From the IMG/VR virus record IMGVR_UViG_3300030376_005322: a stretch of 64,000 nt of DNA. One strand, 5' to 3'. This document shows, one piece after another, positions 45,010-62,407 of this stretch. The stretch comes from an uncultured virus (IMG/VR IMGVR_UViG_3300030376_005322) (taxonomy: Duplodnaviria; Heunggongvirae; Uroviricota; Caudoviricetes). The translations under genes and the position numbers were made by a program. The notes below the pieces were generated by a model. That model had not been told where the DNA came from and made no database searches. It worked only from the letters and a program-made list of their open reading frames with translations. The stretch's first letter is position 1. Every line of letters begins with the position of its first letter.

Positions 45010-45357
45010 TGTATTTTGAGCGTCGAGACGCCTCCCGGGATGCAGCGTTTCAGATGCAGCGGCGCGTGAATTTTCAAGTGTCAATCTGGGATGCAGCCCT
45101 CGATTAAAATTCAAGTGTGAATGTGGCCCGGCAGGGCCCGGTGCATACACGCAGGTGTGAATCTCAGGCGTGAATCTTGGGAGGTCGAAGTCTAATGAAT
45201 GTTGAATGTCGATGCGGGGCCCGGTGTTCCGGCCTCCGGTCAGCCTTCTCCTATCCGTATATATATACTATACCAGACCTGAGAAAAAAAAGCAACCCCT
45301 AAATAAAAAAAAATAAAAAAAAATCGGGCCACCGTAGCGACCCGATTTTTTAATTCC

Positions 45358-45609
45358 TCAGACGAGGGCGATCCACCGGTGATACCAGCGGTTCGTATCC
45401 CAGCGGATACTTCCCACCTCGATCATCAGCACGAGGGCCTCACGGAAGTCCTTCTCGCTGAAGTGACGGAGAGGGTGAGATTCGATCTCATACTCCACTT
45501 CTGCTCTCAGGTCCTCCGTTGGGAGATCGAAGTCGTCGCCTTGTTCGATCTGCCTCGCACGACAGGTGTTGAGTATATGGAACTCATAATTCTTATGAGT
45601 GGTTCTCAT
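45358..45609 (-). CDS. hypothetical protein (cassette array)
   Basis: AAGGAGGT RBS, own promoter (GAGGTTG...TATTAT), terminator 45320-45351. Confidence 0.7.
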   Translation of the reverse strand: MRTTHKNYEFHILNTCRARQIEQGDDFDLPTEDLRAEVEYEIESHPLRHFSEKDFREALVLMIEVGSIRWDTNRWYHRWIALV

Positions 45610-45778
45610 GTTCTACCTCCTTAGTAGCACCCTTTAATAATACCTTGACATGAAAGAAACAACAACCTCGAAAGCAATATTTCTTAAATAAATATTTCTG
45701 AAATAATTTAGTTTTGAGGTTGGTGTTGGCGTGTGCACAAAGTACAATAGATAAGGTAAACAACTACGAAAGGAAACC

Positions 45779-45943
45779 ATGCCAGACTTCAACCACACCG
45801 AGGAAGAACTTCAACTCTTCACTCATGAGGAACTTGTTGAGATAATTCTCTTCAACCAAATGATTCGACTTAGGAGAAGAAGGAATGAGGAAGACCTTCA
45901 CACTCGGATCAGAGACCTAACCAATCTGCTACTCGCAGACTGA
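45779..45943 (+). CDS. 54-aa protein (not in ORF track)
   Basis: MPDFNHTEEELQLFTHEELVEII...; GAAAGG RBS, GAGGTTG-20nt-TACAAT promoter, hairpin at 45950-45980. Confidence 0.7.
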   Translation: MPDFNHTEEELQLFTHEELVEIILFNQMIRLRRRRNEEDLHTRIRDLTNLLLAD

Positions 45944-46049
45944 TCAAACCGGGAAGGGGGGCGAAAGTCCCCCAACCCGATGATGCGGGGCCTCCGGTCC
46001 TCCGGGCCAGTACGCGCAAATGTGGGGGCTCTCACCCCCACGCTCAACT

Positions 46050-46193
46050 TTAGAAAGTTCCGTTCACCATGTCTTCGATGTTCTTGGCAACCTTACTTTT
46101 GTTACGGCGTCGGTCTGCCTTGTTGTTTACTTTGCGCTCTGCTTTGGTAATCCAGTAGTTCGCTCGGTTGGTGTTGTTTGTTCCTGCTTGCAT
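46050..46193 (-). CDS. 47-aa basic protein (not in ORF track)
   Basis: MQAGTNNTNRANYWITKAERK...; AAAGGAAG RBS, own promoter and hairpin. Confidence 0.65.
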   Translation of the reverse strand: MQAGTNNTNRANYWITKAERKVNNKADRRRNKSKVAKNIEDMVNGTF

Positions 46194-46365
46194 TGTTTCT
46201 TCCTTTGCTATTTGGTTATATATTAACTATACACTCTTAATTGACTAATACCAACCTCTAAATAAATAAATATTAAATAAATAATTAGTAAGAAATCTTT
46301 GTTTTGAGGTTGCGGTTAGTGTGGGTATAGAGTATAATGGTTATATACCAATAAGGAGGTGAGCA

Positions 46366-46653
46366 ATGAAACAGCAAGACTTAAGCGATCACGGTTTAGT
46401 TGAGACAGTCACAATGTCTGGAGACCTTAAACAGAATCCAGCGGCGACAGTCCACAGGATCGTAACCGCTTGGCAAGCCAGCGAGCGAGTAATGTTTGAA
46501 GAGAAATTCTATTATGTGTTCTCTTACAACCGTTACGACACCGATGGCGAGACCTTCACCAGAAGGCAAAAATTGTCAAGACGGTTTACATCCTTAGGCG
46601 AGTGTAAAGAATCCCTCAGTGAAGAGTTCGAGGAATTCAAGCCACTATTCTAA
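46366..46653 (+). CDS. hypothetical protein (cassette array)
   Basis: TAAGGAGGTG RBS, GAGGTTG-20nt-TATAAT promoter, hairpin 46661-46688. Confidence 0.75.
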   Translation: MKQQDLSDHGLVETVTMSGDLKQNPAATVHRIVTAWQASERVMFEEKFYYVFSYNRYDTDGETFTRRQKLSRRFTSLGECKESLSEEFEEFKPLF

Positions 46654-46796
46654 ACGGTGAAGGTTGGGAGGTGAAAGCCTTCCAACCTGAATCCGTGCGG
46701 GGCCTCCGGTCCTCCGGCCGGGTACGCGCAAATATGGGGGGCCTTAACGCTTCACCCTCCCCCCCAAGCGGTTGGGGGGAAGGTGTTGCTATCGCG

Positions 46797-47060
46797 TTAT
46801 ACTATGTCGGTTTTTTTCCAACCGGTAGGGACTGATGATATTTTGAAATATCCTGTCGCCTTGTTTGTGATTGGGTTAAAAGCAAAACCCATTCCGCTCG
46901 AAATGACTGCGATCATATCGCCACCGTTATAAGTGAAGATGTCAGCCTTTCCTTCATTTTTCAAGAAGGCGATTCGCCATTTCCAGTTTTCCGCTTTCAT
47001 GTTGCAAGGGTTGTAGAGTCTTTCGACTGCTTCTTCCCCTGTTAGTGTTTCGTAGAGCAT
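46797..47060 (-). CDS. hypothetical protein (cassette array)
   Basis: AAAGGAGG RBS, promoter and hairpin. Confidence 0.7.
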   Translation of the reverse strand: MLYETLTGEEAVERLYNPCNMKAENWKWRIAFLKNEGKADIFTYNGGDMIAVISSGMGFAFNPITNKATGYFKISSVPTGWKKTDIV

Positions 47061-47180
47061 GTGCTCCTCCTTTGTTGTATATATTAACTATACACTAATA
47101 CCCAACATTTAGCAACCCCAAACTAAAATTATTTCAGAAATCTTTTAATCCAGATGCGGGGCGAGAAGGCGCGAGGACAC

Positions 47181-47194
47181 CGAACGTATGTTCG
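47181..47194. promoter_or_regulatory. SOS (LexA) box, Gram-positive type
   Basis: CGAACGTATGTTCG is an exact CGAAC-N4-GTTCG. Confidence 0.7.
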
Positions 47195-47267
47195 ATGCGG
47201 GGCCTCCGGTCCTCCGGCCGGGGGGCGCGAGAATTGGAGGGCTCTCGCCCTCCGCATCTCGTAAGCG

Positions 47268-47519
47268 CTATTTCTTCACTCTCGCTTGACCAGCGAACCG
47301 AGAGAGAACCTCTGCCTTCTTCGCTATCTCTCGGTCTTTGCGTATCGCTATGGCGTGAAGAGTTTTAATGTCTCGTTCTGCCTTTGCGAGGTCTAACCCT
47401 GATTGGATTAGTTCTTCCTTGAGAGAGTCGATCTCTTTGTAGAGGTCACCTCTTTCTTGAAGTGCTAAAAACGTTATGAGAACAAATCCCACTAACGCTA
47501 CTATTGTTAATGCTAACAT
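47268..47519 (-). CDS. membrane-anchored coiled-coil protein
   Basis: N-terminal TM followed by heptad pattern; GAAAGG RBS. Confidence 0.7.
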   Translation of the reverse strand: MLALTIVALVGFVLITFLALQERGDLYKEIDSLKEELIQSGLDLAKAERDIKTLHAIAIRKDREIAKKAEVLSRFAGQARVKK

Positions 47520-47653
47520 TTGATTTCCTTTCGTAGTTGCTTACCCTTTAATAATACCTTCATTTCAACTAGATACCAACCTCAAAACAAAGAAATCTTA
47601 GAAATATTTTAAGCCGGATGCGGGGGCTACCGAAGTGCGGGGGGCGTTGAGGT

Positions 47654-47687
47654 TTGTGAAAACTTTCACTAATCGAACAGACGTTCG
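47654..47687. promoter_or_regulatory. adjacent Rex-like and LexA boxes
   Basis: TTGTGAAAACTTTCACT then CGAACAGACGTTCG. Confidence 0.65.
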
Positions 47688-47814
47688 GTGCGGGGCTCCC
47701 GGTCCTCCGGCCGGGTTCGCGGGAATTTGGGGGGGATATCTTCCCCCCCTTTCATTTATTCCCTTCTCTGGTTTGGGGGATTCTGTTGCCACGCTCCCCC
47801 GAGCGCCGAGTCCA

Positions 47815-48228
47815 TCAGTCTTCTAAGACACCTAGTTCAAGCCCTGAACCGTCGCTATCTCCGATATTCTGAAGATAGTCAAGCGGATCAGTCGCACACC
47901 AGACCGTTGCCGCTCGTGGTACGTCTTTTGTACCGGTAGCGATACCGTCTCTATCAGCCTTGCGTATCCAAGAGATAATGTAAGTATCTGGTTTGGATAG
48001 TTTCGCAACATTGATAGCGATGTGGTTTGCAGGGTTCTTAGGGTTACCAGTGATAGCAACTACAGTCCTTTTATGTTGGACTGCTCGAAGTTTCGCAACT
48101 TCGGCGCGTTGTGTACCTTTGACGGCATCGCCTAAGAACTTCAACCAACTACTTCGCCGACCTGTCGGCCCCATAGGGCGACCTGTCTTTTTGTTGTTGG
48201 TGTTGTGTCCCACGCTAACAAGTTTCAA
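47815..48228 (-). CDS. hypothetical basic protein (cassette array)
   Basis: AAAGGAGGTG RBS before TTG start; own promoter. Confidence 0.7.
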   Translation of the reverse strand: MKLVSVGHNTNNKKTGRPMGPTGRRSSWLKFLGDAVKGTQRAEVAKLRAVQHKRTVVAITGNPKNPANHIAINVAKLSKPDTYIISWIRKADRDGIATGTKDVPRAATVWCATDPLDYLQNIGDSDGSGLELGVLED

Positions 48229-48343
48229 TTTTTCACCTCCTTTATTTGCTTACCCTATTTATTCTAGGCCGCTCACAGCCAATACCAACCTCAAAACTAA
48301 TAAATCTTAGAAATATCTAAGAAATATTTATGCCCTAAATAGG

Positions 48344-48412
48344 GGTACAGGTGTTCGATTAGTGAGCACTTAGTGAAACAATTCACAAACTACTTAGTGA
48401 AACATTTCACAA
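48344..48412. promoter_or_regulatory. degenerate LexA box plus two Rex-like boxes
   Basis: GGTACAGGTGTTCG; AGTGAAACAATTCACAA; AGTGAAACATTTCACAA. Confidence 0.6.
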
Positions 48413-48703
48413 AGTCAGATTTTGCGGGGGCGGGGGACCTCCGGTCTCCCGGGCTACATCGCGTGTGTGAATTTCGTGTGTGAATTTGGCTTCCGGTGCC
48501 TATACGCAGGTGTGAATTTGGGCTCCCGGCTTTCATCGATCCACTTCATAGGTGTGAATCTTGGCCCGGAGGGCCCCGGTGCCTATACGCAGGTGTGAAT
48601 TTTGACCTCGAACTTCTCCCCCCAACCACCTCTCTGGTTGGGGGAGTTTCTGTTGCCACGCTTTGCTATTAGTGCGCCGAGTCTGAGTCAGTAGTCCAAC
48701 GAA

Positions 48704-48928
48704 TTAAATTACGTTTGCATGAGGTCGGGGATCACTAATGATGATCGGTTTTACCGTTCCTCGTTCGTAATCTTCCAACGCCTCCGTCATTCCGCAATCG
48801 CTGCAAATCCAGATTCGTTGCTCGGTGTTCCGAGTCAAACGACTTAAGGCATTTGTTTCGATCGGGGAACGTAATTCGGTTACGTCACATTTAGGACAAA
48901 TTGCTGTTTCCACTTTCACCTCCTCCAT
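48704..48928 (-). CDS. small zinc-ribbon protein
   Basis: CPKC...ALSR......ICSDCG..EA; true start possibly GTG after GGAGG. Confidence 0.65.
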   Translation of the reverse strand: MEEVKVETAICPKCDVTELRSPIETNALSRLTRNTEQRIWICSDCGMTEALEDYERGTVKPIIISDPRPHANVI

Positions 48929-49267
48929 TTGCTTACCCTTTAAGCGTACACTGTTGATTGACTAATCACAAGTGACATGTGTCACACCAAGTCCTCCGGT
49001 TGAGAGTAATAAGAATGTTGGCGGCCGGGTCTCCCGGTCCTTCCGGGGCAAGACGCACTTTTCCCTATGTATATATAATAGCAAATTTTCAACCAAATAG
49101 CAACCCCAAATTAAAATTATTTCAGAAATATTTTATTTTAAGATTTCTAAGATTTCTTTATTTTGAGGTTGGTATATATGCCAAAAAAAGATACTATTAA
49201 AGGAGTGGAGGTGCTGAATAAAAACCACCATGTTAAGCAACCCTAACAAACTTAAAAGGAGTTTGAT

Positions 49268-49705
49268 ATGAAAGTAATAACGATAGAACATAGAAAGATT
49301 AAAGACGGAGTGCCCTACACACTCCTACAACAACAACTAAGTTGGTTCCGTTCACTCGGTAACTACGCCAAAGGTTGTGGTTGGAAAGTTGAACAACCAG
49401 CCTCTGTTGATCGTGCCGCTACTAATTGGATCGCAAATGGAACTTACGCCATAGCGAACTTTACAGTAACGCCACCAGTCAAAGGTTGGTTCCGTTTGAA
49501 TTGGGTACGCCCAAAGACACGGAAGAACAACTACTCCGACACTCAAGCGAAGCAAGAAATTGTTCGCACTGTAAAACTCAAAGTTTTACAAATTGACGGA
49601 GTAGACGCCACCGGAGTATCGGCACAAGACGTGACCGACTACCTCCGAGGCTTGACCACTCACAATTCCATCACCATAGGAATTGACGAACAAAAAAATT
49701 GGTAG
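49268..49705 (+). CDS. hypothetical protein (cassette array)
   Basis: AAAGGAG RBS, GAGGTTG-20nt-TACTAT promoter, GAAA-loop hairpin 49728-49747. Confidence 0.75.
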   Translation: MKVITIEHRKIKDGVPYTLLQQQLSWFRSLGNYAKGCGWKVEQPASVDRAATNWIANGTYAIANFTVTPPVKGWFRLNWVRPKTRKNNYSDTQAKQEIVRTVKLKVLQIDGVDATGVSAQDVTDYLRGLTTHNSITIGIDEQKNW

Positions 49706-49855
49706 GAGTTCAGCACCTCCAGCCCGACGCCTCCCGAAAGGGAGGCGAAAGGCCTCCGGTCTTCCGGGCTGCAGCGCGTGTGTGAATCTTGCGTGTGAAT
49801 TCCTCCGGTGTTCCACGATCCACTTGATAGGTGTGAATTTTGGCTTCCGGCTTGG

Positions 49856-49930
49856 TGGTGACCCTAGAGAGAATTGAACTCTCGTTTCCAACTTGAAAGG
49901 CTAGCGTATTATCCACTATACGATAGGGCC
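49856..49930 (-). tRNA. tRNA-Glu (TTC), CCA encoded
   Basis: GGCCCTA acceptor stem, D arm, anticodon loop CT-TTC-AA, T arm GAGAG-TTCAATT-CTCTC, 3' ACCA. Confidence 0.9.
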
Positions 49931-49988
49931 GTGTATGTGTTCCGGGTAGGGCGAAACTATCGGGGAGGGCCGAAACCCTCCCCAAATG

Positions 49989-50246
49989 TTAAACTGCTTC
50001 GGGCAGGTAGTCCGACCCGATAGCCGCGATCCGAGTGTCAGCAAAACGTTTCGCGTTGTGCTCGGCTGGGTGAGTTTCACCTTCTTCAAGGATAGGGAAC
50101 TCGTACCCGCGTGGGTCTAAACCGGTAACAGTTGTATAAATCCTGTTTCCGTTCTCATCAAGGAATGAGTAGGCGCAGGTGGTACGGTTTCTGCGATGTC
50201 TCGCTGATTCCGCCTCCGTTCTGCGTGGTGTGTTTAATCTGGTCAT
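49989..50246 (-). CDS. hypothetical protein (cassette array)
   Basis: Own promoter; hairpin GGGAGGGCCGAAACCCTCCC downstream. Confidence 0.65.
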   Translation of the reverse strand: MTRLNTPRRTEAESARHRRNRTTCAYSFLDENGNRIYTTVTGLDPRGYEFPILEEGETHPAEHNAKRFADTRIAAIGSDYLPEAV

Positions 50247-50531
50247 TTTGGCTCTTTCTGGTTAGTGGTGAAGCCGATTGCCTCACCCTTTCAATATAAC
50301 TCCATATTGAACAAATACCAACCTCTAAATAAATAAATCTTAGAAATCTTTTTGCCTAAAAATCTGCGCCTCCCGGTCATACCCATAATAGATAGCACCA
50401 GCAGCGCCCGGTCCTTCCGGGCAGAGAAATATGTCATCGGAGGAGGGTAACCACTCCCCCCTCCGGTGACATCGGGTTGACTGGATCGGAGGGAAAAGGA
50501 GTAAACCTCCGGCCCGAGTCTTTATATCTTT

Positions 50532-50753
50532 TTAGAGATCAACTTTTGGTTTCCCTCCATAGCCTCCGGCGGCGAGCATGAACTTTGCATAGTCAAATCG
50601 TGGATTATCTGCCGCGAAATGATCTGCCCATTGCTCACAGGTTTCCCGGTGCGCCTTTTTGTCGGTTACGGTCTTAGTGCTTCTGCTGAGCACTCCGGCC
50701 ATGTCCCTATAGTGTTTTCTTGTGTATAGCATTTTTGCCTCTTTCTTTGTCAT
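50532..50753 (-). CDS. conserved small phage protein
   Basis: 'TRKHY...A......FAADNPRFD..KF..A' pattern; leaderless start. Confidence 0.7.
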   Translation of the reverse strand: MTKKEAKMLYTRKHYRDMAGVLSRSTKTVTDKKAHRETCEQWADHFAADNPRFDYAKFMLAAGGYGGKPKVDL

Positions 50754-50970
50754 ATTTTAAGTATACCTTGAATTGACCTAGTTCCACTGTGACATCTGTC
50801 ACACCGCCCCCGGTCTGCTCTATATGTAAATGTGGAAAATCCCCCGGTACTCCCGGTTGCAAGTTCATGTGTGAATCTGCGTGTGAATATGGGTGTGTAG
50901 GTGTGAATGCCGCTCCCGGTCTTCCGGGCTGGCAAGCGTGAATTGGGGAGGGCCGAAACCCTCCCCGACT

Positions 50971-51270
50971 CTACGATTGTTTACCGTCAGTACTCTCGCG
51001 GGTCCACGGTTGGCTACTTAGGAGTGCTCTCCACTCCACGAAGAGTAATCCGAAGCCTTGAATTTTGCATTCAAGAGCGACAAGCCAGAGACGATCGAAG
51101 TATTTACTAACCGACCATTTAGGTGGATGTAAAACTACCGTGTCGTCATGTCCACTGAAAATAATATGGATGATTTGCTCTTTTTTGGTTTGTGGGAGGT
51201 AGTCGGCCGAGTGGACCCAGCAACGACGTAATCCGTTATTTTTGATTAGGTATTTCTTGGTTTCTTTCAT
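50971..51270 (-). CDS. hypothetical protein (cassette array)
   Basis: Leaderless TACCAT-6nt-ATG; same terminator hairpin as at 49962. Confidence 0.65.
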   Translation of the reverse strand: MKETKKYLIKNNGLRRCWVHSADYLPQTKKEQIIHIIFSGHDDTVVLHPPKWSVSKYFDRLWLVALECKIQGFGLLFVEWRALLSSQPWTRESTDGKQS

Positions 51271-51559
51271 ACTTTAATGGTACACCGTAAATTGACCTTT
51301 CCACTGTGACATCCGTCACATCGCCACAGCCTGCGCCAGCCTGCGCCAGCCTGCGCCTCCCGGGCATATATGCGCCTCCCGGGCATACGGTAGACAGCGC
51401 CCGGTCCCCCGGGTGCAGCCGTGTGAATTTGCGACCGTGTGAATTTGCAGTCGTGTGAATTTAACCACGTGTAAATTTAATACGATTTCTTTGTTTTGAG
51501 GTTGGTATTCACTGTGCAAGGCTTATAATGGATAAGAGAAACAACTACAGGAGAAACAA

Positions 51560-51841
51560 ATGAAATTTGATCCAACAGCAAAAATAGTAAAGAAAGCCAA
51601 AAGAGGCAAAGACAAGTTCACTCTTACCGAGTGCAAAGGTTACAATCTTTTTAACCTCTGGCTAATGGTTCCAGCCCCAAGCGCGGCAGAGCGTCAAGCA
51701 TGGGAAGATCAAGGCATCGCTGACATCATGGAAGATTGCTCAGGCCCTCAATTCTGCGGTCACGTTAACGATCCAGACAATATTGAGATGGCGATAGACG
51801 CCCACCTTGAGGAAATGCATTTTCTCATGCAAGGCATCTAA
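51560..51841 (+). CDS. hypothetical protein (cassette array)
   Basis: AGGAG RBS; GAGGTTG-20nt-TATAAT promoter. Confidence 0.7.
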   Translation: MKFDPTAKIVKKAKRGKDKFTLTECKGYNLFNLWLMVPAPSAAERQAWEDQGIADIMEDCSGPQFCGHVNDPDNIEMAIDAHLEEMHFLMQGI

Positions 51842-51989
51842 GGGCGGAGGGGTCATTTGACCCCAAACCCCCCCCGGTACTCCCGGTCACCCGGGCAGAG
51901 AAATGCCCCCCGAACGTGGAAACTTCGTCCGGGGGGCTGGGGTTAGCAGAGACAAGGAGAAAATGAAAGAAAACTCCTTGCCCCGGCTT

Positions 51990-52430
51990 CTATGATCCGT
52001 ACAGAACGTAACTTTTATCTAATGCTACCGGACTGTAACGTGCGTCTACTTGCGCTTGCTGATCTAACCATTCCACGCAAGACCAATACCATTGTTCTGC
52101 CGTCATGCTTTCGCTATGAGTGACACAATCAAAGTTCACCATCTCACGACTCATGCCCTCCGGGTTCATGGTTGATGCCATGCGCCAGATGTTCGTAATG
52201 TGGTAATCGGTTTCTATGTTGTCCGCTGCCGTGAATATAAAAATTACGTCACCGCGTAAAATAACGGAGTTGTAGGTATCTGCGTGGACCTTCCCGGGTT
52301 CATCTGTGTGGGTTGTCCATTCGTCTACGATTGTTTGCATGTTTGCTTTTGCTTCTGCCTCTTGGCGTTGCAGTTCGTCAAACTCTCGCTGTTCGTCTGT
52401 TGGGTCTACTTCTGACCATTCGTCATTCAT
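51990..52430 (-). CDS. hypothetical acidic protein
   Basis: AAGGAG RBS, own promoter. Confidence 0.7.
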   Translation of the reverse strand: MNDEWSEVDPTDEQREFDELQRQEAEAKANMQTIVDEWTTHTDEPGKVHADTYNSVILRGDVIFIFTAADNIETDYHITNIWRMASTMNPEGMSREMVNFDCVTHSESMTAEQWYWSCVEWLDQQAQVDARYSPVALDKSYVLYGS

Positions 52431-52755
52431 TTTTGGCTCCTTGCCGTTTTGTTTACCTTATCTATTGTAAAGGTTTAATTGACTAATACCAACCTCTCCA
52501 GTTAATTATTTTTTCCAGTTTCTTTCTTTAGTTGGTTTACAGATTTTTTGACAGATGCAAAAAAACTCGTTCCGGTTGCAGTTGCATTTACTTTTATATT
52601 GCCTACATGGGCATAGTGTCGTGTCGTTCATTTGTCCTCCGGGGCTTCATACATCTCTGGAGGGATAATTTGCTTTATCTCGTCCTCCGGGAGACCGTTC
52701 GCTCTTAGGTATGTCATTAAATCCGAGAAGGTGCTCCCGGGCTGTACTTTTCCAG

Positions 52756-54164: not shown

Positions 54165-54308
54165 ACTTTAAGGGTACACGCTTAATTGACGTTTCCACCG
54201 TGACATGTGTCACACGGCCTCCGGGCCACCCGGGTTCGAGAAAGCCACCATGCCTCCCGGGTTACCCATATAACCCGAAAAGCACGTGTGAATTTTCACG
54301 TGTGAATC

Positions 54309-55220
54309 TTACGTGTGAATCTCGGACAGTTCCGGCGACGGTATTTCGTCTGCCGCTTCGGTAATGAACTTGAGCGCCTTACTCGCTTTACTAGCCGCGT
54401 CCCAAACAAACTTATGATCTCCGTTTAAGGCTTTAAGCCAACTAGCGATGTAAGAACCATGATCCTTCCGGGGACTGGTTGCTACTCCGTGATGATTGGA
54501 TAAGAATACGGCACCTAATTCAGCGACTAATTCTTCAAAAGCATATCCGGTACGCTCTCCGTTATTTTCTGCTTTACGATTAAGTCGTGAAGATGCTCCG
54601 GTCCAATGTGTGAACTCATGGGCAACCACTCCGAACCATTCAGCAGTACCTTCAAACTGTACGTCCTCCGGCGTGTTGATGTAGTCACCTGATGGACTGT
54701 AAAACGCTCTATCGCTAGGAGTTTCACGCCAGTCAGCACCGATTGACTTAAACCACTTCCGGTAGACCTCTACGTCTATGTCTGGTGATGGTTCTGGTTG
54801 TTCCCACTTTGGAGCGTTCTCTACTTGTGATGCATGAAAGACACTATAAGAGCGTGCCATCATACGAGATTGAGATGCTCCCGGGTGAGCCTTACATTCG
54901 TTCTTGGACCATTTTCCGCATGTCTCACATACGAAACTTCTGCCCCAATAAATGATTGGTGTTCCGGTTTCGCCCTTCTTGACATTGCCGCCTAATTTCG
55001 CCCAGCCTTTATAGGTGGACCAACGCGGATCAGCAGGATCAGGAGATAGGAACATGAGAACCATGTAATTGCCTCCGGTGTAGATAGTTCCCGATTGTGG
55101 ATTATGTGGCATACGCCCAGCACCTTGCCAAGGCTTAGTCCAATCCTCCGGGTTGTTCTCTAATTGGCGGATAATTGCTTCTGTTAATTGTTTTTGGATT
55201 ACTTCAGTTTTTTCACTCAT
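54309..55220 (-). CDS. ardC: ArdC-like antirestriction ssDNA-binding protein with zincin domain
   Basis: W.KPW, P.N..SG..Y.G.N, W.TY..W..LG..VKKGE.G, VF..SQV, AFYSP..DYI..P, HEFTHWTG...RL.R, YAFEELVAELGA, YIASWL. Confidence 0.9.
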   Translation of the reverse strand: MSEKTEVIQKQLTEAIIRQLENNPEDWTKPWQGAGRMPHNPQSGTIYTGGNYMVLMFLSPDPADPRWSTYKGWAKLGGNVKKGETGTPIIYWGRSFVCETCGKWSKNECKAHPGASQSRMMARSYSVFHASQVENAPKWEQPEPSPDIDVEVYRKWFKSIGADWRETPSDRAFYSPSGDYINTPEDVQFEGTAEWFGVVAHEFTHWTGASSRLNRKAENNGERTGYAFEELVAELGAVFLSNHHGVATSPRKDHGSYIASWLKALNGDHKFVWDAASKASKALKFITEAADEIPSPELSEIHT

Positions 55221-55394
55221 GTATATAAGGATAAAGGGTAAATCTGGGAATTACTCCACAATGTGACAGAAGTCACAAAATTAAAAAAGTAGCGGCATCC
55301 GGTACACCCGGCACCCGGGCGCACTGCAAGGAAGAAGCAGCGCCCGGGTTGCATGGGGTGGATAAATCTTGCGTGTGAATCTCATGTGTGAATT

Positions 55395-55742
55395 TCATGC
55401 GTTTAACCAGACTGTCGGAGGAGCAGTATCTTCCCACATATCGTCATACCTGCACCAATAACAGACGCCATCTTGCGTGAACATCGTTATCCCATAATGG
55501 GTATCGCAGTTATAGCAAGCGTCGTAATCTTTATCACCTGCCGCCGCTTTCTCTTTAGCAATATCGCTGTCACGGTGTTCCGGTAACACGAAAGGGACAA
55601 TCACTACCTTCAAAGGAGTGCCGTTCATGTCGCGAGGGATATCTTTATCTGTTACACAGTTTGGGCAAACAAAGTAGTCGTGGGCGACATAAGTCTCCAT
55701 GTCCATGTCTATAAGAACATCACATCTTGAGCATTCGCTCAT
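55395..55742 (-). CDS. Cys-rich protein
   Basis: Four CxxC pairs; start ATG 55742. Confidence 0.6.
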   Translation of the reverse strand: MSECSRCDVLIDMDMETYVAHDYFVCPNCVTDKDIPRDMNGTPLKVVIVPFVLPEHRDSDIAKEKAAAGDKDYDACYNCDTHYGITMFTQDGVCYWCRYDDMWEDTAPPTVWLNA

Positions 55743-56197
55743 ATTATCTCTACTTCTTTTACACCGTATTGGCTTAGAGTGCCTACCCTTGAACGTCCGG
55801 CGTACTCGCATTTAGCAGAGGAGTCGTGCTCCCAGAACATGCCATTGTCGTCGCCTTTTTCGTGCGCCCAACCCCGAGAAACAAAATCTCGTGCTATCTC
55901 TAAAACCTTCCGTTCAATGTAAGCCTCATCAACATGACGTGCAGACAAATCCCGGTCTGGGTCTACCCACTGGTCATAGGCGAGCCAGCCGTGATCTAGG
56001 GTGACCTCTTTCTCTACGAGAACCCTGACCTTTATGGACTTATCCCGAGCAACAAAATCTTCAACGAATTCGTTGAACAGTTTCTGTTTGTAGCATTCAT
56101 CGTGATAGACCGTTGAGTATTCTGCGTGAACTCCGCCAGAAGTTATCTCTGGGTCATCGGTAAAGTCTGAACAATTTTCGTAATCGCAAACCAACAT
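55739..56197 (-). CDS. hypothetical protein
   Basis: 152 aa, operon member. Confidence 0.6.
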   Translation of the reverse strand: MLVCDYENCSDFTDDPEITSGGVHAEYSTVYHDECYKQKLFNEFVEDFVARDKSIKVRVLVEKEVTLDHGWLAYDQWVDPDRDLSARHVDEAYIERKVLEIARDFVSRGWAHEKGDDNGMFWEHDSSAKCEYAGRSRVGTLSQYGVKEVEII

Positions 56198-56199
56198 GA

Positions 56200-56355
56200 C
56201 TATCCTTCCTCTACGCTAACAAGTTCGCCTAGTTCCATTTCTTGTGCTATATCCCAAGCACTGTCCGGTGTCTCCGCCTCAATACAAACTGATTGAGTGC
56301 CCCATTGCCAGACATTAAAAAACTCAACTTTATATTTATTCAGTGTGTCCGGCAT
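56200..56355 (-). CDS. DpnD/PcfM-like small protein (not in ORF track)
   Basis: MPDTLNKYKVEFF...VCIEAETPDSAWDIA... Confidence 0.55.
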   Translation of the reverse strand: MPDTLNKYKVEFFNVWQWGTQSVCIEAETPDSAWDIAQEMELGELVSVEEG

Positions 56356-56357
56356 GA

Positions 56358-56615
56358 TTATTCCTCATCATCTTCGTCGTCGTCATCTGAATAACCGTCG
56401 CCATCATATTCCCAACCTGTATACATGTCGGTAACCATGCTTGGTTCTGGGAAGCCGTGTTCAACTGCTTCCGTAATTTCAAATGAGTTCCATTCCGCAT
56501 CAGTCAGAGCCCTAGCCTCTGAAACTTTCTGCGATGCTTCCTCTGGGCTGTCTGCGTCTATTTCAAATATGCCGCTGACGGTCCATTCTGTAACTTCTAC
56601 TCTGTAACTTCCCAC
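56358..56615 (-). CDS. DpnD/PcfM-like acidic protein
   Basis: 'YRVEV....FEIDADSPEEA.QKV'. Confidence 0.65.
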   Translation of the reverse strand: MGSYRVEVTEWTVSGIFEIDADSPEEASQKVSEARALTDAEWNSFEITEAVEHGFPEPSMVTDMYTGWEYDGDGYSDDDDEDDEE

Positions 56616-56672
56616 TGTATTCTTCTTCCTGTATTGTTTGTTATATCTAATTGTAAAGGTTTAATTGACTAA

Positions 56673-57155
56673 TCACAACGTGTCATCGGTCACATCGCCT
56701 CCGGCAACGCTTTCTTCTAAGTTGCGTAAATAAGTTCTGATCTTGTATATGTCGTGGCGATGCCATGCCGCCGAAACATGTATTTGTTGTTGGTTCCCCA
56801 ATTTTTCCATTTCGTCATACGGCAATTCTGCCAACCAATCCAAGAACTCTATGGTCCGGGTGAGGTCATTATCTTTGCGGTCTACTTTTTCCTCGCGGAC
56901 TTCCGGCATAGGTTTTAGAGAGAAGAGTATTTCATCGTCGCCGTCTTTTTCCCAATCACCGTTTTCGCTAACGATCATGTAAACATCAACATGTTTATTC
57001 TCGCTCCGGGCCTTATAGACTTTGTAGGCCTCACGGATTGCAGTATCCGAGAAAGCATAAGAGCGTTGAAACTCGCCATCTACCCACATTGTGTACCTAT
57101 GATCTCCGGTCGAATGAGGTGGCTTATGTTCTCTGTAGTCTTTCCAACTAGTCAT
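56673..57155 (-). CDS. hypothetical protein
   Basis: AAGGAAG RBS. Confidence 0.65.
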   Translation of the reverse strand: MTSWKDYREHKPPHSTGDHRYTMWVDGEFQRSYAFSDTAIREAYKVYKARSENKHVDVYMIVSENGDWEKDGDDEILFSLKPMPEVREEKVDRKDNDLTRTIEFLDWLAELPYDEMEKLGNQQQIHVSAAWHRHDIYKIRTYLRNLEESVAGGDVTDDTL

Positions 57156-57757
57156 TGCTTTCTTCTTCCTTAATAGAGAAATGGCTCATGATATTGTCAA
57201 ATGCTTCGAGCAAGTTTTTAGCGTGGGCCATCTCTGGGTTTTCGGTATTTTCTGTTTCTTTATCCATACCTTTCAGGATAAGGGGTAAATCTGGGAATTA
57301 CTCATTATTCCTTGAATTGTTTTGTGACCCATGTCACACGCCCTCCGGTCAATAGAATGACAGCGGGCTCCCGGTTACCCGGGCTTGCAGTAACTTAATG
57401 CAGCAAGCGTGTGAATCTTGCGTGTGAATCATTGTAAAGATTTCAACACGTTAATTTCAGACTGCCAATCATCTCCGTACTGCTCATTCTCTTCTAAGAA
57501 GTTTATGATCGTAGCCAGCACCCGGCTGTTGTATTGTTTATCTGTTTCTTGATAAGTCATGGCTTCCTTATATCTTCTCTAGGATCGCGGCGACCTTTTT
57601 TAAGGTCTCTAAATCCATATTGTTAATAGCATCTTCGTTGATGAGTTTTGGGCTCCTCCACATGTCTGCTAATTCTTCTGATGGGTCTTTCTCTGTGTTT
57701 GTCATATATTTAATGATAGAGGGTAAATCTGGGAATTACTCTATAATGTGACAGGAG

Positions 57758-58075
57758 TCACACATTTATTACCCTTAAGTGCATTCTCCCATCGTTAGTG
57801 ATCTGCCCGGTAGGCAAAGCCTCTACCCGAACAACTTCCGCTCTAGGGAAATATTTATCCCGATAAGTCTCAGCCGCCTTCCGGTAACGCCAGACCGAAG
57901 CCGTAGCCATATCCGGGCTGGCATAGAACCGTTCGTGGACGCTGTAATATCTTCCGGTATGTAGTGGTAGGTCCGAGTCGCGTAACGCATACATTGAGTG
58001 GACAGACTTCTTGTTCCACCCGTGAATCATCTCTATAGGGCCGCGCAGAACATACCCGGTTGGGTGCTTGCTCAT
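57758..58075 (-). CDS. hypothetical protein
   Basis: GGAGG RBS. Confidence 0.6.
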   Translation of the reverse strand: MSKHPTGYVLRGPIEMIHGWNKKSVHSMYALRDSDLPLHTGRYYSVHERFYASPDMATASVWRYRKAAETYRDKYFPRAEVVRVEALPTGQITNDGRMHLRVINV

Positions 58076-58077
58076 AT

Positions 58078-58221
58078 TTAAGCCTCCTCAACATATACTT
58101 CTTGAAGTTTCCCCATCGGGACTATTTCAGCATCGTTATATGCTTGCTCAGGGTCTCCGGCTTCGATGGTGTATACCATTTGTCCGTATTCGTGTACAAA
58201 TGAAACGTTGTATAAGGTCAT
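58078..58221 (-). CDS. DpnD/PcfM-like small protein
   Basis: 'YNVSF......YTIEAGDPEQAY'; start ATG 58221. Confidence 0.55.
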   Translation of the reverse strand: MTLYNVSFVHEYGQMVYTIEAGDPEQAYNDAEIVPMGKLQEVYVEEA

Positions 58222-58961
58222 GCGTGCACCCCATTCTGTATGTCGTGAATAGTTACTTTCTTCAAACTTTCTAAAGAAATCTCCCATTCAGGAACAAGAC
58301 GTTTGGTGTCTCCGCACATCGCTTCAACAACACTTTCACAATTCTCGTAGAACACTCCCCACGCTATTTCTCGTTGATTATCAGTGAGTGTGTCGCCACG
58401 TTCCGGCATCTGGTCAATAAGGTTTTCAGTCTCATCAACTATCTGAACACCGTTATCCCATACGCCGTGATAGCGCCATTCAGGTGCTTCCATAATTGAC
58501 AGCACAGTTATGCGGCAACGATATCGTCTAGAAATAGTTTCTAGAGCCTTCTCCGGTGGGCACCACGCACTTGTAAAAGCGTAAGCGTGAACGAATAGTT
58601 CATCAGCGACAGAGCGAACTTTATTTATATCCAATTCGCCATAGTCGGTACTGAACCCTGCGGTACTGTCAATTTTGCGGAAATCGTAGTCTCCCCACTT
58701 GGAACCCCAATTCAGATCAGCCCATAGGCGACCGTCAATAGTCCCGGCTTCATCATCTTGGTCAGTGAACGCACTGCCGATAACTTCCCCATCTATAACG
58801 ATGTCTTTACGACCATTTTCAGGGAAGGGAATCAAATGACTAATAAAAGAGTCAATTTCTCCGGCGGCGGTATCTTCCAACACAAGATTTAGAATCTTCC
58901 GTTGGGCAGGTGGTGTGTCTGTGAAATCCACAAACATTTTGTTAAATACGTGATTAGGCAT
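58218..58961 (-). CDS. Api92/YubB-like ferredoxin-fold (DUF1281-type) protein
   Basis: MPNH..N, W...NWGSKW, F.SAW.PP motifs. Confidence 0.75.
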   Translation of the reverse strand: MPNHVFNKMFVDFTDTPPAQRKILNLVLEDTAAGEIDSFISHLIPFPENGRKDIVIDGEVIGSAFTDQDDEAGTIDGRLWADLNWGSKWGDYDFRKIDSTAGFSTDYGELDINKVRSVADELFVHAYAFTSAWCPPEKALETISRRYRCRITVLSIMEAPEWRYHGVWDNGVQIVDETENLIDQMPERGDTLTDNQREIAWGVFYENCESVVEAMCGDTKRLVPEWEISLESLKKVTIHDIQNGVHA

Positions 58962-59033
58962 TTTTTAATCTTTCTTGTAAGGGTAACCCTTAACCGAGTC
59001 CCCGAAGGGACCCGGTTGGGTGGGTTTACCGAA

Positions 59034-59294
59034 TTAGTAAACTGATATTGTGGTTTCTGCTTCTAAAGTGATAGTTCCACTAGCGAGAGATTCTTTAATT
59101 TGATCTGTAATCAAATCAGAGAAATCGAACTCGTCTATTTCAGCGCTGACGTAATCAGAGAAATCTACATCTCCAATAGCGTTTTCAACAGCAGTTTCAA
59201 TAGTTCCCTGCATATCTTCGTCTACTTCAGTAGAGGGCAGATAAGGAACTAATGCTTCTGCTAATGCTTTAAGCAATTTTTCTATTGTGTCCAT
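59034..59294 (-). CDS. acidic hypothetical protein
   Basis: AGGAAG RBS; own promoter; hairpin downstream. Confidence 0.65.
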   Translation of the reverse strand: MDTIEKLLKALAEALVPYLPSTEVDEDMQGTIETAVENAIGDVDFSDYVSAEIDEFDFSDLITDQIKESLASGTITLEAETTISVY

Positions 59295-59538
59295 TATTTC
59301 TTCCTAACTATATTTCGGTGGTATATCCACATATATTACGATAGGGGGTAAATCTGGGAATTACTCAAAAAAGACGTGTTTGTTTTGTGACGTGTGTCAC
59401 ATGCTAAAACAGCGCCTCCTCCGGTCTTCCCGGGCTACTGAAAAAAGAAAATACCGCCCGGGGAGCGAAAGAAGTAACAACCCGGGCGGTATAGGAAATC
59501 TGGGAATGCAAATCTGGGATTGCAGCCACGTGTGAATT

Positions 59539-59733
59539 TTAGCGTGTGAATTCCTCCGGATAGTGTATTTTAGTGATCCGGTTACATTCTTCTGCCCAGA
59601 ACTTTGCTTTTTTTATGTCCTCTAATGTGATGTCATCTTCGTCATTCACATAGTTTTCCATATTGTGAGCCTGTGTTTCGTAGAGTAAATCCAACGCTTC
59701 GATTACGATGTCTTTAGGGGTGAAGTCGCTCAT
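59539..59733 (-). CDS. hypothetical protein
   Basis: Last gene of coupled operon. Confidence 0.6.
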   Translation of the reverse strand: MSDFTPKDIVIEALDLLYETQAHNMENYVNDEDDITLEDIKKAKFWAEECNRITKIHYPEEFTR

Positions 59734-60194
59734 TTCTCCCCCAGTCCTTCGGGAAAGTTTTTCTCTAGGTATGTCCGAAAGAATCTTAAGTCTCGTAAAA
59801 TGGAATGAAGTCCTTCGTCGTACTGCTCGTGTTCTTCATTAGACATCTCTAATAGGTTCTTTGAATAAGGCTTTAAGCATTCCAAGAACCTTATGGCTTT
59901 ACCGACACTTTCTGACCAGCAGCCTCTGTCCGGTGACGGTGTATCCCAGTCAATGTCGAACTTGTCGATATTTCCTAAGTGGACATAGATGTCTGCTGGT
60001 ACTCCGGCACCTACATGGTCGCCTTCTTCTACCACGGTAATCAAAAGCCCATGATCGTCATGCCCTTCCTTGACCCCAATTACTTTTGCGCGAAGCCAAG
60101 GCATGGCTACCGTGTCTCCGAATGTTCGGGCTCCTCCCCAGTAATTGAATTCAGTTCCGACAGTTGTTAATTTGTCTAATTCTGATTGGCTCAT
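59730..60194 (-). CDS. hypothetical protein
   Basis: ATGA-coupled. Confidence 0.6.
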   Translation of the reverse strand: MSQSELDKLTTVGTEFNYWGGARTFGDTVAMPWLRAKVIGVKEGHDDHGLLITVVEEGDHVGAGVPADIYVHLGNIDKFDIDWDTPSPDRGCWSESVGKAIRFLECLKPYSKNLLEMSNEEHEQYDEGLHSILRDLRFFRTYLEKNFPEGLGEK

Positions 60195-60388
60195 TGTTCC
60201 TCAACTCCTACTATTGTGCCGTCCGCCGCTGGGTCCTCAACGTATGCTGGTTCCCAGTTCCCGGTGTTCCGTAATGTGTTCCAGTTCGCTTCGTCATCAA
60301 CGAACTTTTGCATTGCTTCCTGTTCACTGTCGGCATCAACCATGACAGCGAACTCTGCTTCTGCAGTGAATGTAACTTGGTATTCCAT
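60191..60388 (-). CDS. DpnD/PcfM-like small protein
   Basis: 'YQVTF......VMVDADSEQEA.QKF'. Confidence 0.65.
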   Translation of the reverse strand: MEYQVTFTAEAEFAVMVDADSEQEAMQKFVDDEANWNTLRNTGNWEPAYVEDPAADGTIVGVEEQ

Positions 60389-60624
60389 TATTGCCCTTTC
60401 TTAACGTTGAACCGTGCGAGAGTTTCCTCATCAAGGTGTGGTGCGATTACGTCCATGAACCATAGGTAACGGTCAATATCTTTGATGCCAGTCAAAAATT
60501 CTGTGACTGCTTCCTTGCGGTCTTTACGAGCCGCTTCGATTACTTGTTGTTCAAACATTGCTAAAATGTTTTTATAACCCTCATCACTTGGGGTCATATC
60601 TACTGTCATTACTTCTTCGCTCAT
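60388..60624 (-). CDS. hypothetical protein
   Basis: First gene of operon behind CRP-like site. Confidence 0.6.
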   Translation of the reverse strand: MSEEVMTVDMTPSDEGYKNILAMFEQQVIEAARKDRKEAVTEFLTGIKDIDRYLWFMDVIAPHLDEETLARFNVKKGQ

Positions 60625-60853
60625 TGTTTTCTTTCTGTCAATAAATGTTGTGGAACTTCCACATATCTAATGGTACACCTTTGGTTGACTTTTACCTCAT
60701 TATTTAAGGGTTAATTTTGTGACGCATGTCACATGCCCGTCCGGTCCCTTCCGGGCTAACCAATCCACACCGCCCGGTCCCTCCCGAATCTGGGAATGCA
60801 AATCTGGGAGTACACCGGCGTGTGAATCTGGGCGTGTGAATTTCACGTGTGAA

Positions 60854-61024
60854 TTACCAGTCTCTAACCTCGTCTGTAGTGATTTCCACCAAAGGTCCAG
60901 CCTCTGCTAAAAGATCAGGGATATGAACAGTTTCGGCATAATGCTCTGCCTCGTCTCTGTCCATTTCAACAGTTGTGATTAGTATGACATTTTCGTAAAC
61001 AAACGAAATATTATATTTTCCCAT
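60854..61024 (-). CDS. 56-aa protein (not in ORF track)
   Basis: MGKYNISFVYENVILITTVEMDRDEAEHYA...; stop overlaps GTGTGAAT motif. Confidence 0.5.
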   Translation of the reverse strand: MGKYNISFVYENVILITTVEMDRDEAEHYAETVHIPDLLAEAGPLVEITTDEVRDW

Positions 61025-61166
61025 TAGATTATCTCATGCCTTCCGTTCTCGTTCTTCTCGGTGAACTTATCTGCACAACAAACATCTCCACCTGTGCTAT
61101 CAAAGAACATGCCTTCATGTTCGTAAATCCGATCCCCACACCAGTCGCATTCTCCGCCTGAATCGC

Positions 61167-61595
61167 TCATTGGTTTATGTACCATTCATCTACGAAGTGC
61201 TCCGCTATTTCACGCCATTGAACTCGCCAGAAGGAACCGATGTCGTCACGAACGTCTGAAAAACCGTAGCCCTTACCTTGGACGATTTCCGACAGTTGGC
61301 AATAATCACCAACAAAGAATTCTTCTAACGCACCAGCAACGTCGTTATGTAAAATATTCCAGCCTGCATTAGTTATCGCAGTAGAGCCAAATGCTTCGCC
61401 TTCGTCAGGGTCCTCGCTATTCCAATGACCAGCCATTTCAAAAACATGGTCAAATATGCCCAGTTCTTTAACCTGTAATTCGCCAGCCCAAAGGTTTACT
61501 GCCCATGTCTCGCGATTAGTCCAGCCGTTGTAATCTTCAAAACCCTCGTGACTTCTCCAATCTATGCGCCGCATTACTTCCTGCTTTTCTTTCAT
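61167..61595 (-). CDS. conserved phage protein with YNGWTN.ETW..NLW motif
   Basis: YNGWTNRETWAVNLW and V.W.EIAEH motifs; start ATG 61595 after GGAGGTG. Confidence 0.7.
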   Translation of the reverse strand: MKEKQEVMRRIDWRSHEGFEDYNGWTNRETWAVNLWAGELQVKELGIFDHVFEMAGHWNSEDPDEGEAFGSTAITNAGWNILHNDVAGALEEFFVGDYCQLSEIVQGKGYGFSDVRDDIGSFWRVQWREIAEHFVDEWYINQ

Positions 61596-61846
61596 TGCGT
61601 CACCTCCACGCCAATAATACGCATGCTGTGTATCTCCATATTGAAACGAGTGAGAGAGTCCCAGCATTCATTGGGCATCGCATACGATCCTTCGGATAGT
61701 TGTGACCATGCCACCGCTCGGGCTTGTAACTCGTTTTGAATTTCGTGACTGAAAGAATCTAATTCGACTTCCACAGTTAGCGCTTCGTTTAGTAATATTT
61801 TGACAAAATAGTTTGTCACTGTTTTCTGTTTTACTACCATTACCAT
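61592..61846 (-). CDS. hypothetical protein
   Basis: First gene behind CRP-like site. Confidence 0.55.
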   Translation of the reverse strand: MVMVVKQKTVTNYFVKILLNEALTVEVELDSFSHEIQNELQARAVAWSQLSEGSYAMPNECWDSLTRFNMEIHSMRIIGVEVTQ

Positions 61847-62197
61847 TCCTTAATGTTGTAAATATGTACACCATCTATGGTAGGGGGTAAATCTGTAATT
61901 GACAAGTGACATGTGTCACACCCAAACAAGCGCCCTCCCGGGTCACCTCCCGGCCTTACCCGGTCTCGAAATCTGGGGATACAGCGCCCGGTGTCAATCT
62001 ACGTGTGAATCTTGCCCGGTGCGGTTACGCAAGTGTGAATTTTGCCCGGTGTGAATCTGGGAATACAGAATCGGGGATACTTTCATGTGTGAATTTTCAT
62101 GTGTGAATCTGGGCACACAAACCCACGTGTGAATCCATGTGTGAATCCCCACCCGCATCAGGGAGATGCAGGCAGGAACCCAACCACATGTGTGAAT

Positions 62198-62407
62198 TTA
62201 ATCGACGAGAGAAGCGGAACCTCTAGTTCCAGCCAAACGAGAAGCCGCAGCACCCTTCACTACAGAAAGGGCAGCAGACACGCCAGCCATAACAATCATC
62301 TTCCACTGATCAACACCAAGGTCCATGACACTATTAGTTGACATAGCGCCAATAGCCGCTTGGCAAAAAGTCGCCAACGTCCTCTCAGCGAGGTCTTTAT
62401 AATTCAT
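62198..62407 (-). CDS. holin, r1t-like
   Basis: 'KDLAER.LATF.QA...W......AALSV.K......G...SASL'. Confidence 0.85.
   Translation of the reverse strand: MNYKDLAERTLATFCQAAIGAMSTNSVMDLGVDQWKMIVMAGVSAALSVVKGAAASRLAGTRGSASLVD

Follow-up and report, generated by a model that had tools for sequence, protein, structure and literature searches.

The stretch of DNA analyzed in this study, called the window in the following, comprises 64,000 nucleotides of an uncultured virus of the class Caudoviricetes (IMG/VR record IMGVR_UViG_3300030376_005322). Open reading frame (ORF) calling combined with family scans revealed that it belongs to a marine siphovirus-like phage transcribed almost wholly leftward, with 84 of 111 greedily called ORFs pointing in this direction, and the strand with this polarity is referred to as the sense strand. 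In its region of small genes, we identified eleven arrays of a short repeated word, all of the same polarity and several of them in contact with stop codons. The arrays and the genes of this region that matter for their description are as follows:

45–64 kb: small-gene region with dozens of genes without a known family, plus an ArdC-like and an r1t-holin-like gene
62572..62817, minus strand: coiled-coil and transmembrane protein of 81 aa, used as family marker
62198..62407, minus strand: r1t-holin-like membrane protein of 69 aa, last gene before the largest array
62003..62197, minus strand: array 1, 8 units, the largest; first unit immediately after the holin-like TAA (62198–62200)
60820..60854, minus strand: array 2, 3 units; one-base overlap of the first unit with the stop codon of ORF 60854–61024
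59530..59551, minus strand: array 3, 2 units flanking the stop codon of ORF 59539–59733
57409..57429, minus strand: array 4, 2 units
55373..55393, minus strand: array 5, 2 units, 1 nt past the TGA of ORF 55395–55811, with the ArdC promoter region downstream
54309..55220, minus strand: ArdC-like anti-restriction protein with ArdcN and zincin peptidase domains
54286..54320, minus strand: array 6, 3 units, of which one is within the final ArdC codons and two are past the TAA (54309–54311)
51421..51460, minus strand: array 7, 3 units with 16-nt spacing, behind a divergent plus-strand promoter-like site (51502–51529)
50869..50943, minus strand: array 8, 4 units (one GCGTGAAT), 27 nt past the end of ORF 50971–51270
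49856..49930, minus strand: tRNA-Glu, anticodon UUC, among small genes and immediately ahead of array 9 on the sense strand
49780..49838, minus strand: array 9, 3 units, 17 nt past the 3' end of tRNA-Glu
48465..48600, minus strand: array 10, 5 units, about 100 nt past ORF 48704–48928, with a hairpin (48619–48644) in between
45064..45175, minus strand: array 11, 4 units (two GCGTGAAT), irregular spacing

Written on the plus strand, the word GYGTGAAT was found 44 times in the 64 kb, all 44 copies on this strand, while 100 dinucleotide-preserving shuffles of the window gave an expectation of 4.24 copies (standard deviation 2.2, maximum 10). The form GTGTGAAT alone accounted for 39 copies on the plus strand versus none on the minus strand, three versus none of them in the first 44 kb. 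Altogether, 39 of the 44 GYGTGAAT copies were located in the 11 clusters between 45,064 and 62,197, and only five strays were detected outside (142, 12964, 39786, 42069, and 43865). A preliminary description of this DNA had reported at least 30 plus-strand copies in clusters of 2–8 and only few in the first 44 kb; counting by strand and region agreed with both statements, the 39 copies falling into those same 11 clusters, and revealed neither an equal share of both strands nor a genome-wide spread, as the copies are all on the plus strand and concentrated at 45–62 kb.

Read in the direction of transcription, the unit corresponds to A-R-ATTCAC-V-C with the core ATTCACAC and occurs 2–8 times per array, mostly at a spacing of 12–16 nt in the window. 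A logo of 91 units showed A (82%), R (G 63%, A 34%), ATTCACAC, and g (48%). With 10–11 nt the unit is non-palindromic, an asymmetry that it shares with stoperator sites of about 13 bp. The seventh letter of the word can be A, C, or G, with ATTCACCC favored by one clade and ATTCACGC found within arrays. On the sense strand, the 8-nt core contains no G, and only a single inverted or G-U partner copy was present on this strand of the window.

The contexts of the eleven arrays were read by hand; an automatic classification of neighbors based on greedy ORF calls proved unreliable and was set aside. In five cases a stop codon is overlapped or at most 2 nt away, one array follows tRNA-Glu after 17 nt, one a gene end after 27 nt, two a gene end after 100–180 nt with a hairpin in between, and one a divergent promoter, while array 4 could be assigned to none of these groups. 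The contact with the stop codons of the holin-like gene, ArdC, and the ORFs ending at 60854, 59539, and 55395, which had already been pointed out in the preliminary description, could be read from the sequence, and so could the encoding of the motif by last codons, seen in ArdC and ORF 59539–59733. In array 3, one unit lies in the last codons of the latter ORF and the next 1–2 nt past its stop, and the first unit of array 6 past the ArdC stop lies at the same distance of 1–2 nt. Since the units in the last codons of these two genes are in different reading frames, the word is kept as nucleotides and not as protein. Array 1 marks the junction of a long late/lysis transcription unit with the small-gene region.

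Array 7 has no adjoining sense-strand gene end. Hairpins, a T run, and a convergent plus-strand gene come after array 9, which has neither palindrome nor promoter behind it and is thus the exception among the arrays, as a P or P-like (P') palindrome plus promoter, described below, was found 54–130 nt past the last unit of the other 10 of 11. Array 10 is followed by two TGTGAA..TTTCAC palindromes and a promoter-like TTGGTA-16-TAGAAT, and array 11 lies downstream of a strong terminator-like hairpin (45351–45318) with a 15-bp stem and T run. The earlier statement that these operons lack clear hairpin terminators was therefore only partly right, as several arrays adjoin terminator-like hairpins on the sense strand (59468–59454, 45351–45318, and after 49780). 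DNA contigs of co-occurring strains (runs X1 and X3) break or diverge at or near arrays, with loose ends at 48543, 57465, and 62049, which may be recombination junctions or plain assembly failure at repeats. Array 11 is followed by a long untranslated stretch, in which GGTCTC/GAGACC hexamers are repeated in a run (about 44790–44880) and a 4-nt length variant between DNA runs was seen at 44877.

The strand-polar arrays are not restricted to the window but also occur in uncultured marine phages that form a widespread family. When viral contigs were scanned for two adjacent units, several showed dispersed one-strand clusters, and counts of the octamer by strand in the records of four relatives were 0:21, 20:1, 4:0, and 17:1, compared to 0–1 for a reversed-pattern control. 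These four relatives share with the window the holin-like protein (58–67% identity), the 81-aa protein, ArdC (54–61%), and few others. Using the holin-like protein as bait, we obtained 74 viral loci (805 kb) with 128 sense versus 5 antisense copies and with arrays in 13 of them. All 13 array-bearing loci encoded the 81-aa protein, which was absent from all array-less loci sharing the holin homologue; the latter belong to other phages and revealed no analogous arrays. With the 81-aa protein as bait, 68 metagenome loci (401 kb) were found, displaying 387 sense versus 12 antisense copies and at least three units in 45 loci. The antisense copies that were inspected, seven in five loci (L172, L174, L331, L357, and L361), were single and either lay in coding sequence or represented one conserved site. 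This site is a single antisense GTGTGAAT that precedes a 2OG-Fe(II) oxygenase gene by about 12 nt (L174:2339, L357:6280, and L361:905) and is located in a small imperfect inverted repeat.

The compared carrier phages share 52–68% protein identity, and carriers range in G+C content from 0.44 to 0.61; the word is nevertheless kept in 8 of 8 letters while spacers and flanks cannot be aligned between lineages. Unit spacing differs by lineage, with modes of 13–14, 17–18, 20, and 37–38 nt. In a clade of high G+C content (L163, L183, L366, L368, and L369), ATTCACCC preceded by GG replaces ATTCACAC; here, the order of the intergenic elements was the same and the GTGAC-N4-GTCAC box was unchanged. As in the window, the holin-like gene of the relatives precedes the largest array, which starts at most 40 nt from its stop in 12 of 14 lineages inspected. 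Arrays of the relatives also flank inserted antisense genes on both sides, always in sense orientation, and several stand before convergent genes without a downstream promoter. Copy number turns over between close relatives, and decayed copies are rare. In the nearest cultured relative examined, Gordonia phage GMA6, nothing comparable was found between 40,001 and 83,324.

In the window and in its relatives, the arrays are one part of an intergenic cassette. On the sense strand, its order is array, TCCCAGATT (Q), CCGGRRG (G), GTGAC-N4-GTCAC (P), and a TAnnnT promoter; the order array-Q-G-P holds in the window wherever the elements co-occur and is shared by the relatives. The elements downstream of the arrays are located as follows:

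60787..60809, minus strand: Q motif (sense TCCCAGATT), two copies after array 2
45083, 55241, 57288, 57726, 59351, 59497, 59511, 62054: remaining Q copies
47203..47217, minus strand: G motif pair (sense CCGGAGGaCCGGAGG)
61906..61919: P box GTGAC-N4-GTCAC, one of 12 in the window
60719, 59387, 57748, 57324, 55263, 54200, 53712, 53172, 51306, 50789, 48972: other P boxes
46254, 47115, 47579, 48288, 49103, 50321, 52492, sense strand: second-class promoter-like sites
49169, 51502, plus strand: second-class promoter-like sites

The 9-mer Q is present in 10 copies in the window, on one strand only (0.56 expected), and four of these copies lie within promoter-like blocks; two follow array 3, ahead of the hairpin 59468–59454. 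CCGGRRG was counted 66 times in sense versus 5 times in antisense orientation at 43–64 kb; it lies between arrays and P boxes, stands alone in the cassettes at 45–48 kb, and forms G+C hairpins in some places. The 12 P boxes compare to 0.03 expected, and each is located about 22–46 nt upstream of a TAnnnT hexamer. In one promoter class, an ATG follows 5–7 nt after TAnnnT, which suggests that the P-box class comprises activator-dependent promoters of the leaderless type. The P box matches the CRP-type pattern TGTGA-N6-TCACA, and its center would be near -42.5 of the presumed transcription start. At four of the 12 P boxes an array is missing, and the palindrome itself adjoins the stop codon on its upstream side.

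A second promoter class, TTGGTA/TTGCTA-16/17-TAnnnT followed by a Shine-Dalgarno leader, serves genes at 45–53 kb. Three CGAAC-N4-GTTCG boxes were found (47181–47194, 47674–47687, and 32271–32284; 0.06 expected), two of them in intergenic cassettes upstream of TTGGTA/TTGCTA promoters, and relative G001 harbors two tandem copies in the equivalent place. This is the LexA box type of Gram-positive bacteria, and it hints at an SOS-linked control and at the type of host. Directly after two promoter blocks, short sense ORFs of 8–12 codons starting with ATG-TGG (MW...) were observed (59300–59340 and 60630–60680), which may encode leader peptides; one of them ends in TAATG, overlapping the start of the next gene. 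Furthermore, five TGTGAA(A/T)-N-TTTCAC palindromes occur at 44955–45010, 48385–48415, and 47670–47685, only in the lineage of the window. Their left arm TTGTGAAT shows 7/8 identity with the reverse complement of the array unit; a common half-site was considered and rejected, as these palindromes are confined to that lineage.

The contexts limit what the arrays can be. Array 9 stands before a convergent gene without a promoter, as do arrays in relatives, and is thus not merely part of a promoter; in general, arrays without promoters and promoters without arrays make such a role unlikely. Likewise, arrays located after a divergent promoter or after a strong hairpin are difficult to reconcile with no more than a 3' untranslated element belonging to the gene upstream. 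All contexts agree with a boundary that limits sense transcription and also with a DNA signal of genome polarity, and the fixed slot at the upstream edge of the cassette together with the closeness to stop codons favors the boundary. Tentatively, and as the best of several readings, we regard the arrays as a factor-dependent, sense-strand-specific transcription boundary that is read co-transcriptionally. Each unit would be the recognition site of one sequence-specific factor, and the arrays would form the upstream boundary of the modular cassette, stopping or processing transcripts that leave the upstream operon, so that each small operon would be driven by its own promoter alone. The substrate might be the sense copy, in the form of nascent RNA close behind the released ribosome or of the non-template strand within the transcription bubble, and the reader a multivalent factor, host Rho-like or phage-encoded. 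In our view, such sense-strand reading is more probable than occupation of double-stranded DNA by a protein. It would make strand polarity automatic; the signal would be transcribed before being read, leaving the stop codon in the mRNA, unlike a roadblock at this place; and variable spacing should be easier for flexible RNA than for cooperative binding on the helix. The G-free sense core is in line with this as well. The proposal of the preliminary description, a protein-dependent terminator or roadblock, remains the leading idea and found partial support in position, co-orientation, and conservation within the family, while its premise of absent hairpins did not hold generally and some arrays lie off gene ends.

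Several observations weigh against co-transcriptional reading. Array 7 and one array of relative G002 lie behind a divergent gene start, and arrays 10 and 11 as well as the first array of nine relatives follow a hairpin, so that little sense RNA may reach them. The array-plus-Q zones are at most 40 nt long in 5 of 11 cases, too short and too G-rich for classical Rho loading, the spacers are not G-poor (24–32% G), and folding predictions leave the units (0.37–0.65) little more unpaired than their surroundings (0.31–0.44). The palindrome and promoter after 10 of 11 arrays would also be consistent with control of promoters. No RNA- or DNA-binding candidate tied to the motif was found among the scanned proteins of the window and its relatives, and sequence searches of three candidate binders against solved structures gave no match. 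Two RNA runs yielded 8 and 2 short contigs (at most 364 nt, depth at most 4.3), from which no transcript ends were readable. One RNA contig, 100% identical, covers 60715–60852 including array 2 and carries an A-rich tail that looks untemplated; it may be DNA carry-over, and no conclusion was drawn from it.

Regarding Rho itself, rut sites have regularly spaced C residues and act in sense RNA only. The arrays are rut-like in lying just after stop codons, in their C-containing, G-free core, and in a period of 12–14 nt in the window. Unlike in rut sites, an exact word of 8–10 nt is conserved, which Rho does not need, and spacing varies by lineage; a stretch of 70–80 nt of C-rich, G-poor, unstructured RNA past the stop codon was not found; the zones contain 30% C and 19% G overall, but the spacers taken alone 24–32% G. 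A further candidate was the DnaA box, since recognition by a protein that all hosts possess would account for the conservation. DnaA boxes terminate transcription in an orientation-dependent manner and follow the relaxed consensus TTWTNCACA with an invariant CACA end. ATTCACA fits positions 3–9 of this consensus; the DnaA box was rejected, since the unit fails at three positions, with A-R in place of TT at positions 1–2 and a last A that is freely A, C, or G, and a further conserved C follows. Pairing of the unit with the left arm of the P box (UCACAC:GUGUGA), predicted in several folds, was rejected as well, as no co-variation was seen in the ATTCACCC clade. In a covariance-model search of 44–64 kb against Rfam 15, only the tRNA scored above its threshold. 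A phage RNA polymerase or sigma factor was not found in the relatives, a weak negative, as the PF00940 control matched nowhere. A search of the literature for two motif strings gave, among the matches listed, only primers and unrelated text, which is no proof that the motif is undescribed. The arrays match no family that was tested and are best described as a variant of polar boundary sites.

Nearly as likely as co-transcriptional reading, and likewise tentative, is a roadblock of the kind for which the repressor of mycobacteriophage L5 at its 13-bp stoperators is the model, namely a block of elongation in one orientation. By analogy, a monomeric phage or host protein on each asymmetric unit of 10–11 bp might stop RNA polymerase in one direction and thereby insulate operons or shut off early ones. 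According to PMC9283540, stoperators of cluster A phages are asymmetric, occur many times per genome in short intergenic spaces, are oriented with transcription, and have been proposed to stop elongation, and the arrays resemble them in their asymmetric sites co-oriented with transcription in short intergenic spaces. Orientation is comparably strict here (39:0, 128:5, and 387:12), in genomes whose genes run nearly all one way, so that polarity relative to genome and to transcription is inseparable. A period of 13–14 bp would suit the footprint of one monomer, array 7 and array S10490 of G002, lying where no sense gene ends, would fit a DNA element of the cassette, and the lineage is actinophage-like (capsid, portal, an L5 gp82-like protein, LexA boxes of the Gram-positive type). 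In place of more than 20 single sites genome-wide including the early promoter, however, we found 11 arrays of 2–8 units within 17 kb (45–62 kb) and five strays, and spacing differs between lineages. Cluster A phages are temperate and encode a cognate immunity repressor; here, neither repressor, integrase, other lysogeny gene, nor partition ATPase was detected among the scanned proteins of the window and G001, a result that is not final for the incomplete genome of the window. Besides, a polymerase halted before the stop codon is transcribed should leave non-stop mRNAs of ArdC and the holin-like gene, and arrays at operon ends, not just past promoters, would leave the next operon unsilenced. 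It is improbable that the arrays are an upstream antenna that raises the local concentration of a promoter factor or titrates it and delays activation. The factor might be a reader of AGATT in TCCCAGATTT, a string common to the units and to Q (itself situated in the -35/spacer portion of one class of promoters), or a CRP-type protein on GTGA half-sites, since the reverse complement of the unit has the half-site TGTGA, and the P box fits the full pattern at the presumed -42.5. The P or P' palindromes past 10 of 11 arrays would agree with this. Arrays without a downstream promoter (array 9 and several before convergent genes in relatives), the 4 of 12 P boxes without array, the variable distance between array and promoter, the P box unchanged in the ATTCACCC clade, and P' sites confined to the lineage of the window do not. 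The inverted CRP/FNR operator TGTGA-N6-TCACA is also absent from the arrays, which are direct repeats of one half-site, and at 13 nt apart these should not seat CRP dimers.

Slightly less probable still would be a genome-polar DNA signal apart from transcription, such as a Chi-like octamer that tames a host end-processing nuclease coming in from the end where packaging starts, or a directional cue for DNA translocation, packaging, or replication. Chi and KOPS are strictly one-strand octamers, as is the word, whose polarity is constant even beside antisense genes, and the 3' end of the GTGTGAAT strand faces the small and large terminase genes of the relatives, about 6–7 kb beyond the largest array, which is the orientation that a Chi-like site should need. 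Gene direction equals genome direction in every genome seen, so that the two polarities are inseparable, and the alternative of the preliminary description, a directional signal for DNA translocation, was neither supported nor contradicted. Neither nuclease nor motor would need a fixed slot in a cassette or contact with stop codons, though, and no arrays occur in the other 44 kb. Moreover, a scan of a genome collection for two adjacent units (at least 120 matches, several hundred expected by chance by our own arithmetic) was at chance level, with isolated tandem repeats, one eukaryote-like CA satellite, and no prophage among the matches listed. Two further explanations appear very unlikely. 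By analogy to RedRock, whose parS loci contain eight direct copies of an 8-bp motif (PMC7157519), the arrays might be centromere-like or clamp-loading sites for the ParB_N-domain proteins of the family, two of which are conserved upstream in relatives. The likeness covers directly repeated 8-bp motifs, up to eight copies as in the largest window array, and an actinophage-like genome with ParB-domain proteins (PMC7157519). Instead of two loci beside parAB, however, eleven arrays are dispersed at operon borders, no ParA was found among the scanned proteins, and no sign of lysogeny or plasmid maintenance was seen. The CTP-binding box of ParB is GERRxRA; the corresponding GNHTWRAA of L163 lacks its arginines and looks like that of a nuclease-type domain. 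Equally improbable are arrays without a function of their own, i.e., tandem expansions on a mobile terminator-promoter cassette that might mainly offer homology for the shuffling of small genes, as has been proposed for PeSL cassettes, in which we know of no counterpart to the arrays. PeSL cassettes of T4-type phages are likewise composite regulatory cassettes repeated at the borders of small, variable genes (PMC2839356, PMC4122927); here, unlike there, the cassette consists of four distinct strand-polar words plus a palindrome, and the phage lineage is unrelated. Repetition of the whole cassette at many gene junctions, turnover of copy number, and the contig breaks near arrays would suit such an origin, but the breaks may be assembly failures, eight letters remain intact across unalignable spacers and a 17-point difference in G+C content, decayed copies are rare, and polarity and slot are invariant.

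Going beyond the boundary role, the arrays might be the cis sites of a previously unknown sequence-specific termination/insulation system widespread in uncultured marine phages, in which tandem A-R-AUUCAC-V-C would be read behind the terminating ribosome, on the nascent transcript or the non-template strand, by a conserved factor, phage-encoded or a host adaptor, partitioning a genome transcribed in one direction into independent operons, in hosts probably of the Gram-positive (actinobacterial) type. This stronger version we consider rather unlikely, albeit worth stating.

Outside the small-gene region, family scans assigned two further blocks of the window:

about 2.8–33 kb: structural module with tape measure, major head protein, protease, and portal
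37–43 kb: recombination and lysis block with exonuclease, single-stranded DNA-binding protein, and endolysin

Megablast against phage and plasmid collections revealed no close relative of the window, and BLASTn of the array region gave no match in the phage collection. At the protein level, the capsid (45–49% identity) and portal (35–38%) resemble those of Gordonia and Brevibacterium phages, and an L5 gp82-like protein is encoded. Upstream of the holin-like gene, relatives carry a block encoding ParB_N-domain proteins, a methyltransferase, small and large terminase, 2OG-Fe(II) oxygenases, and a lysin-like protein. In G001 (L130, 21000–39000), this block, which lies past the right end of the window, comprises an HTH_36/DnaD-like protein, an SNF2 helicase, two ParB_N proteins, a methyltransferase, small and large terminase, and several 2OG-Fe(II)/TauD oxygenases, while no DNA polymerase was seen in it. 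Public runs containing the DNA were marine or aquatic metagenomes, viral metagenomes, and one coded organism. Altogether, LexA-type boxes, promoter traits, starts that look leaderless, and a capsid like that of actinophages hint at a host of the Gram-positive type, perhaps an actinobacterium.

The word provides a clean family marker for widespread uncultured marine phages; it is lacking in their nearest cultured relatives, the Gordonia and Brevibacterium phages. Together with the Q, G, and P boxes, the LexA-type boxes, and the leaderless-looking promoters, a readable regulatory grammar emerges for a phage without a cultured host, including hints on that host. If the arrays are factor-dependent boundaries, they would represent a compact, portable word for termination or insulation, with which its reader protein could be isolated, and they would reveal how dozens of small early operons are controlled separately in a phage whose whole genome is transcribed in one direction.

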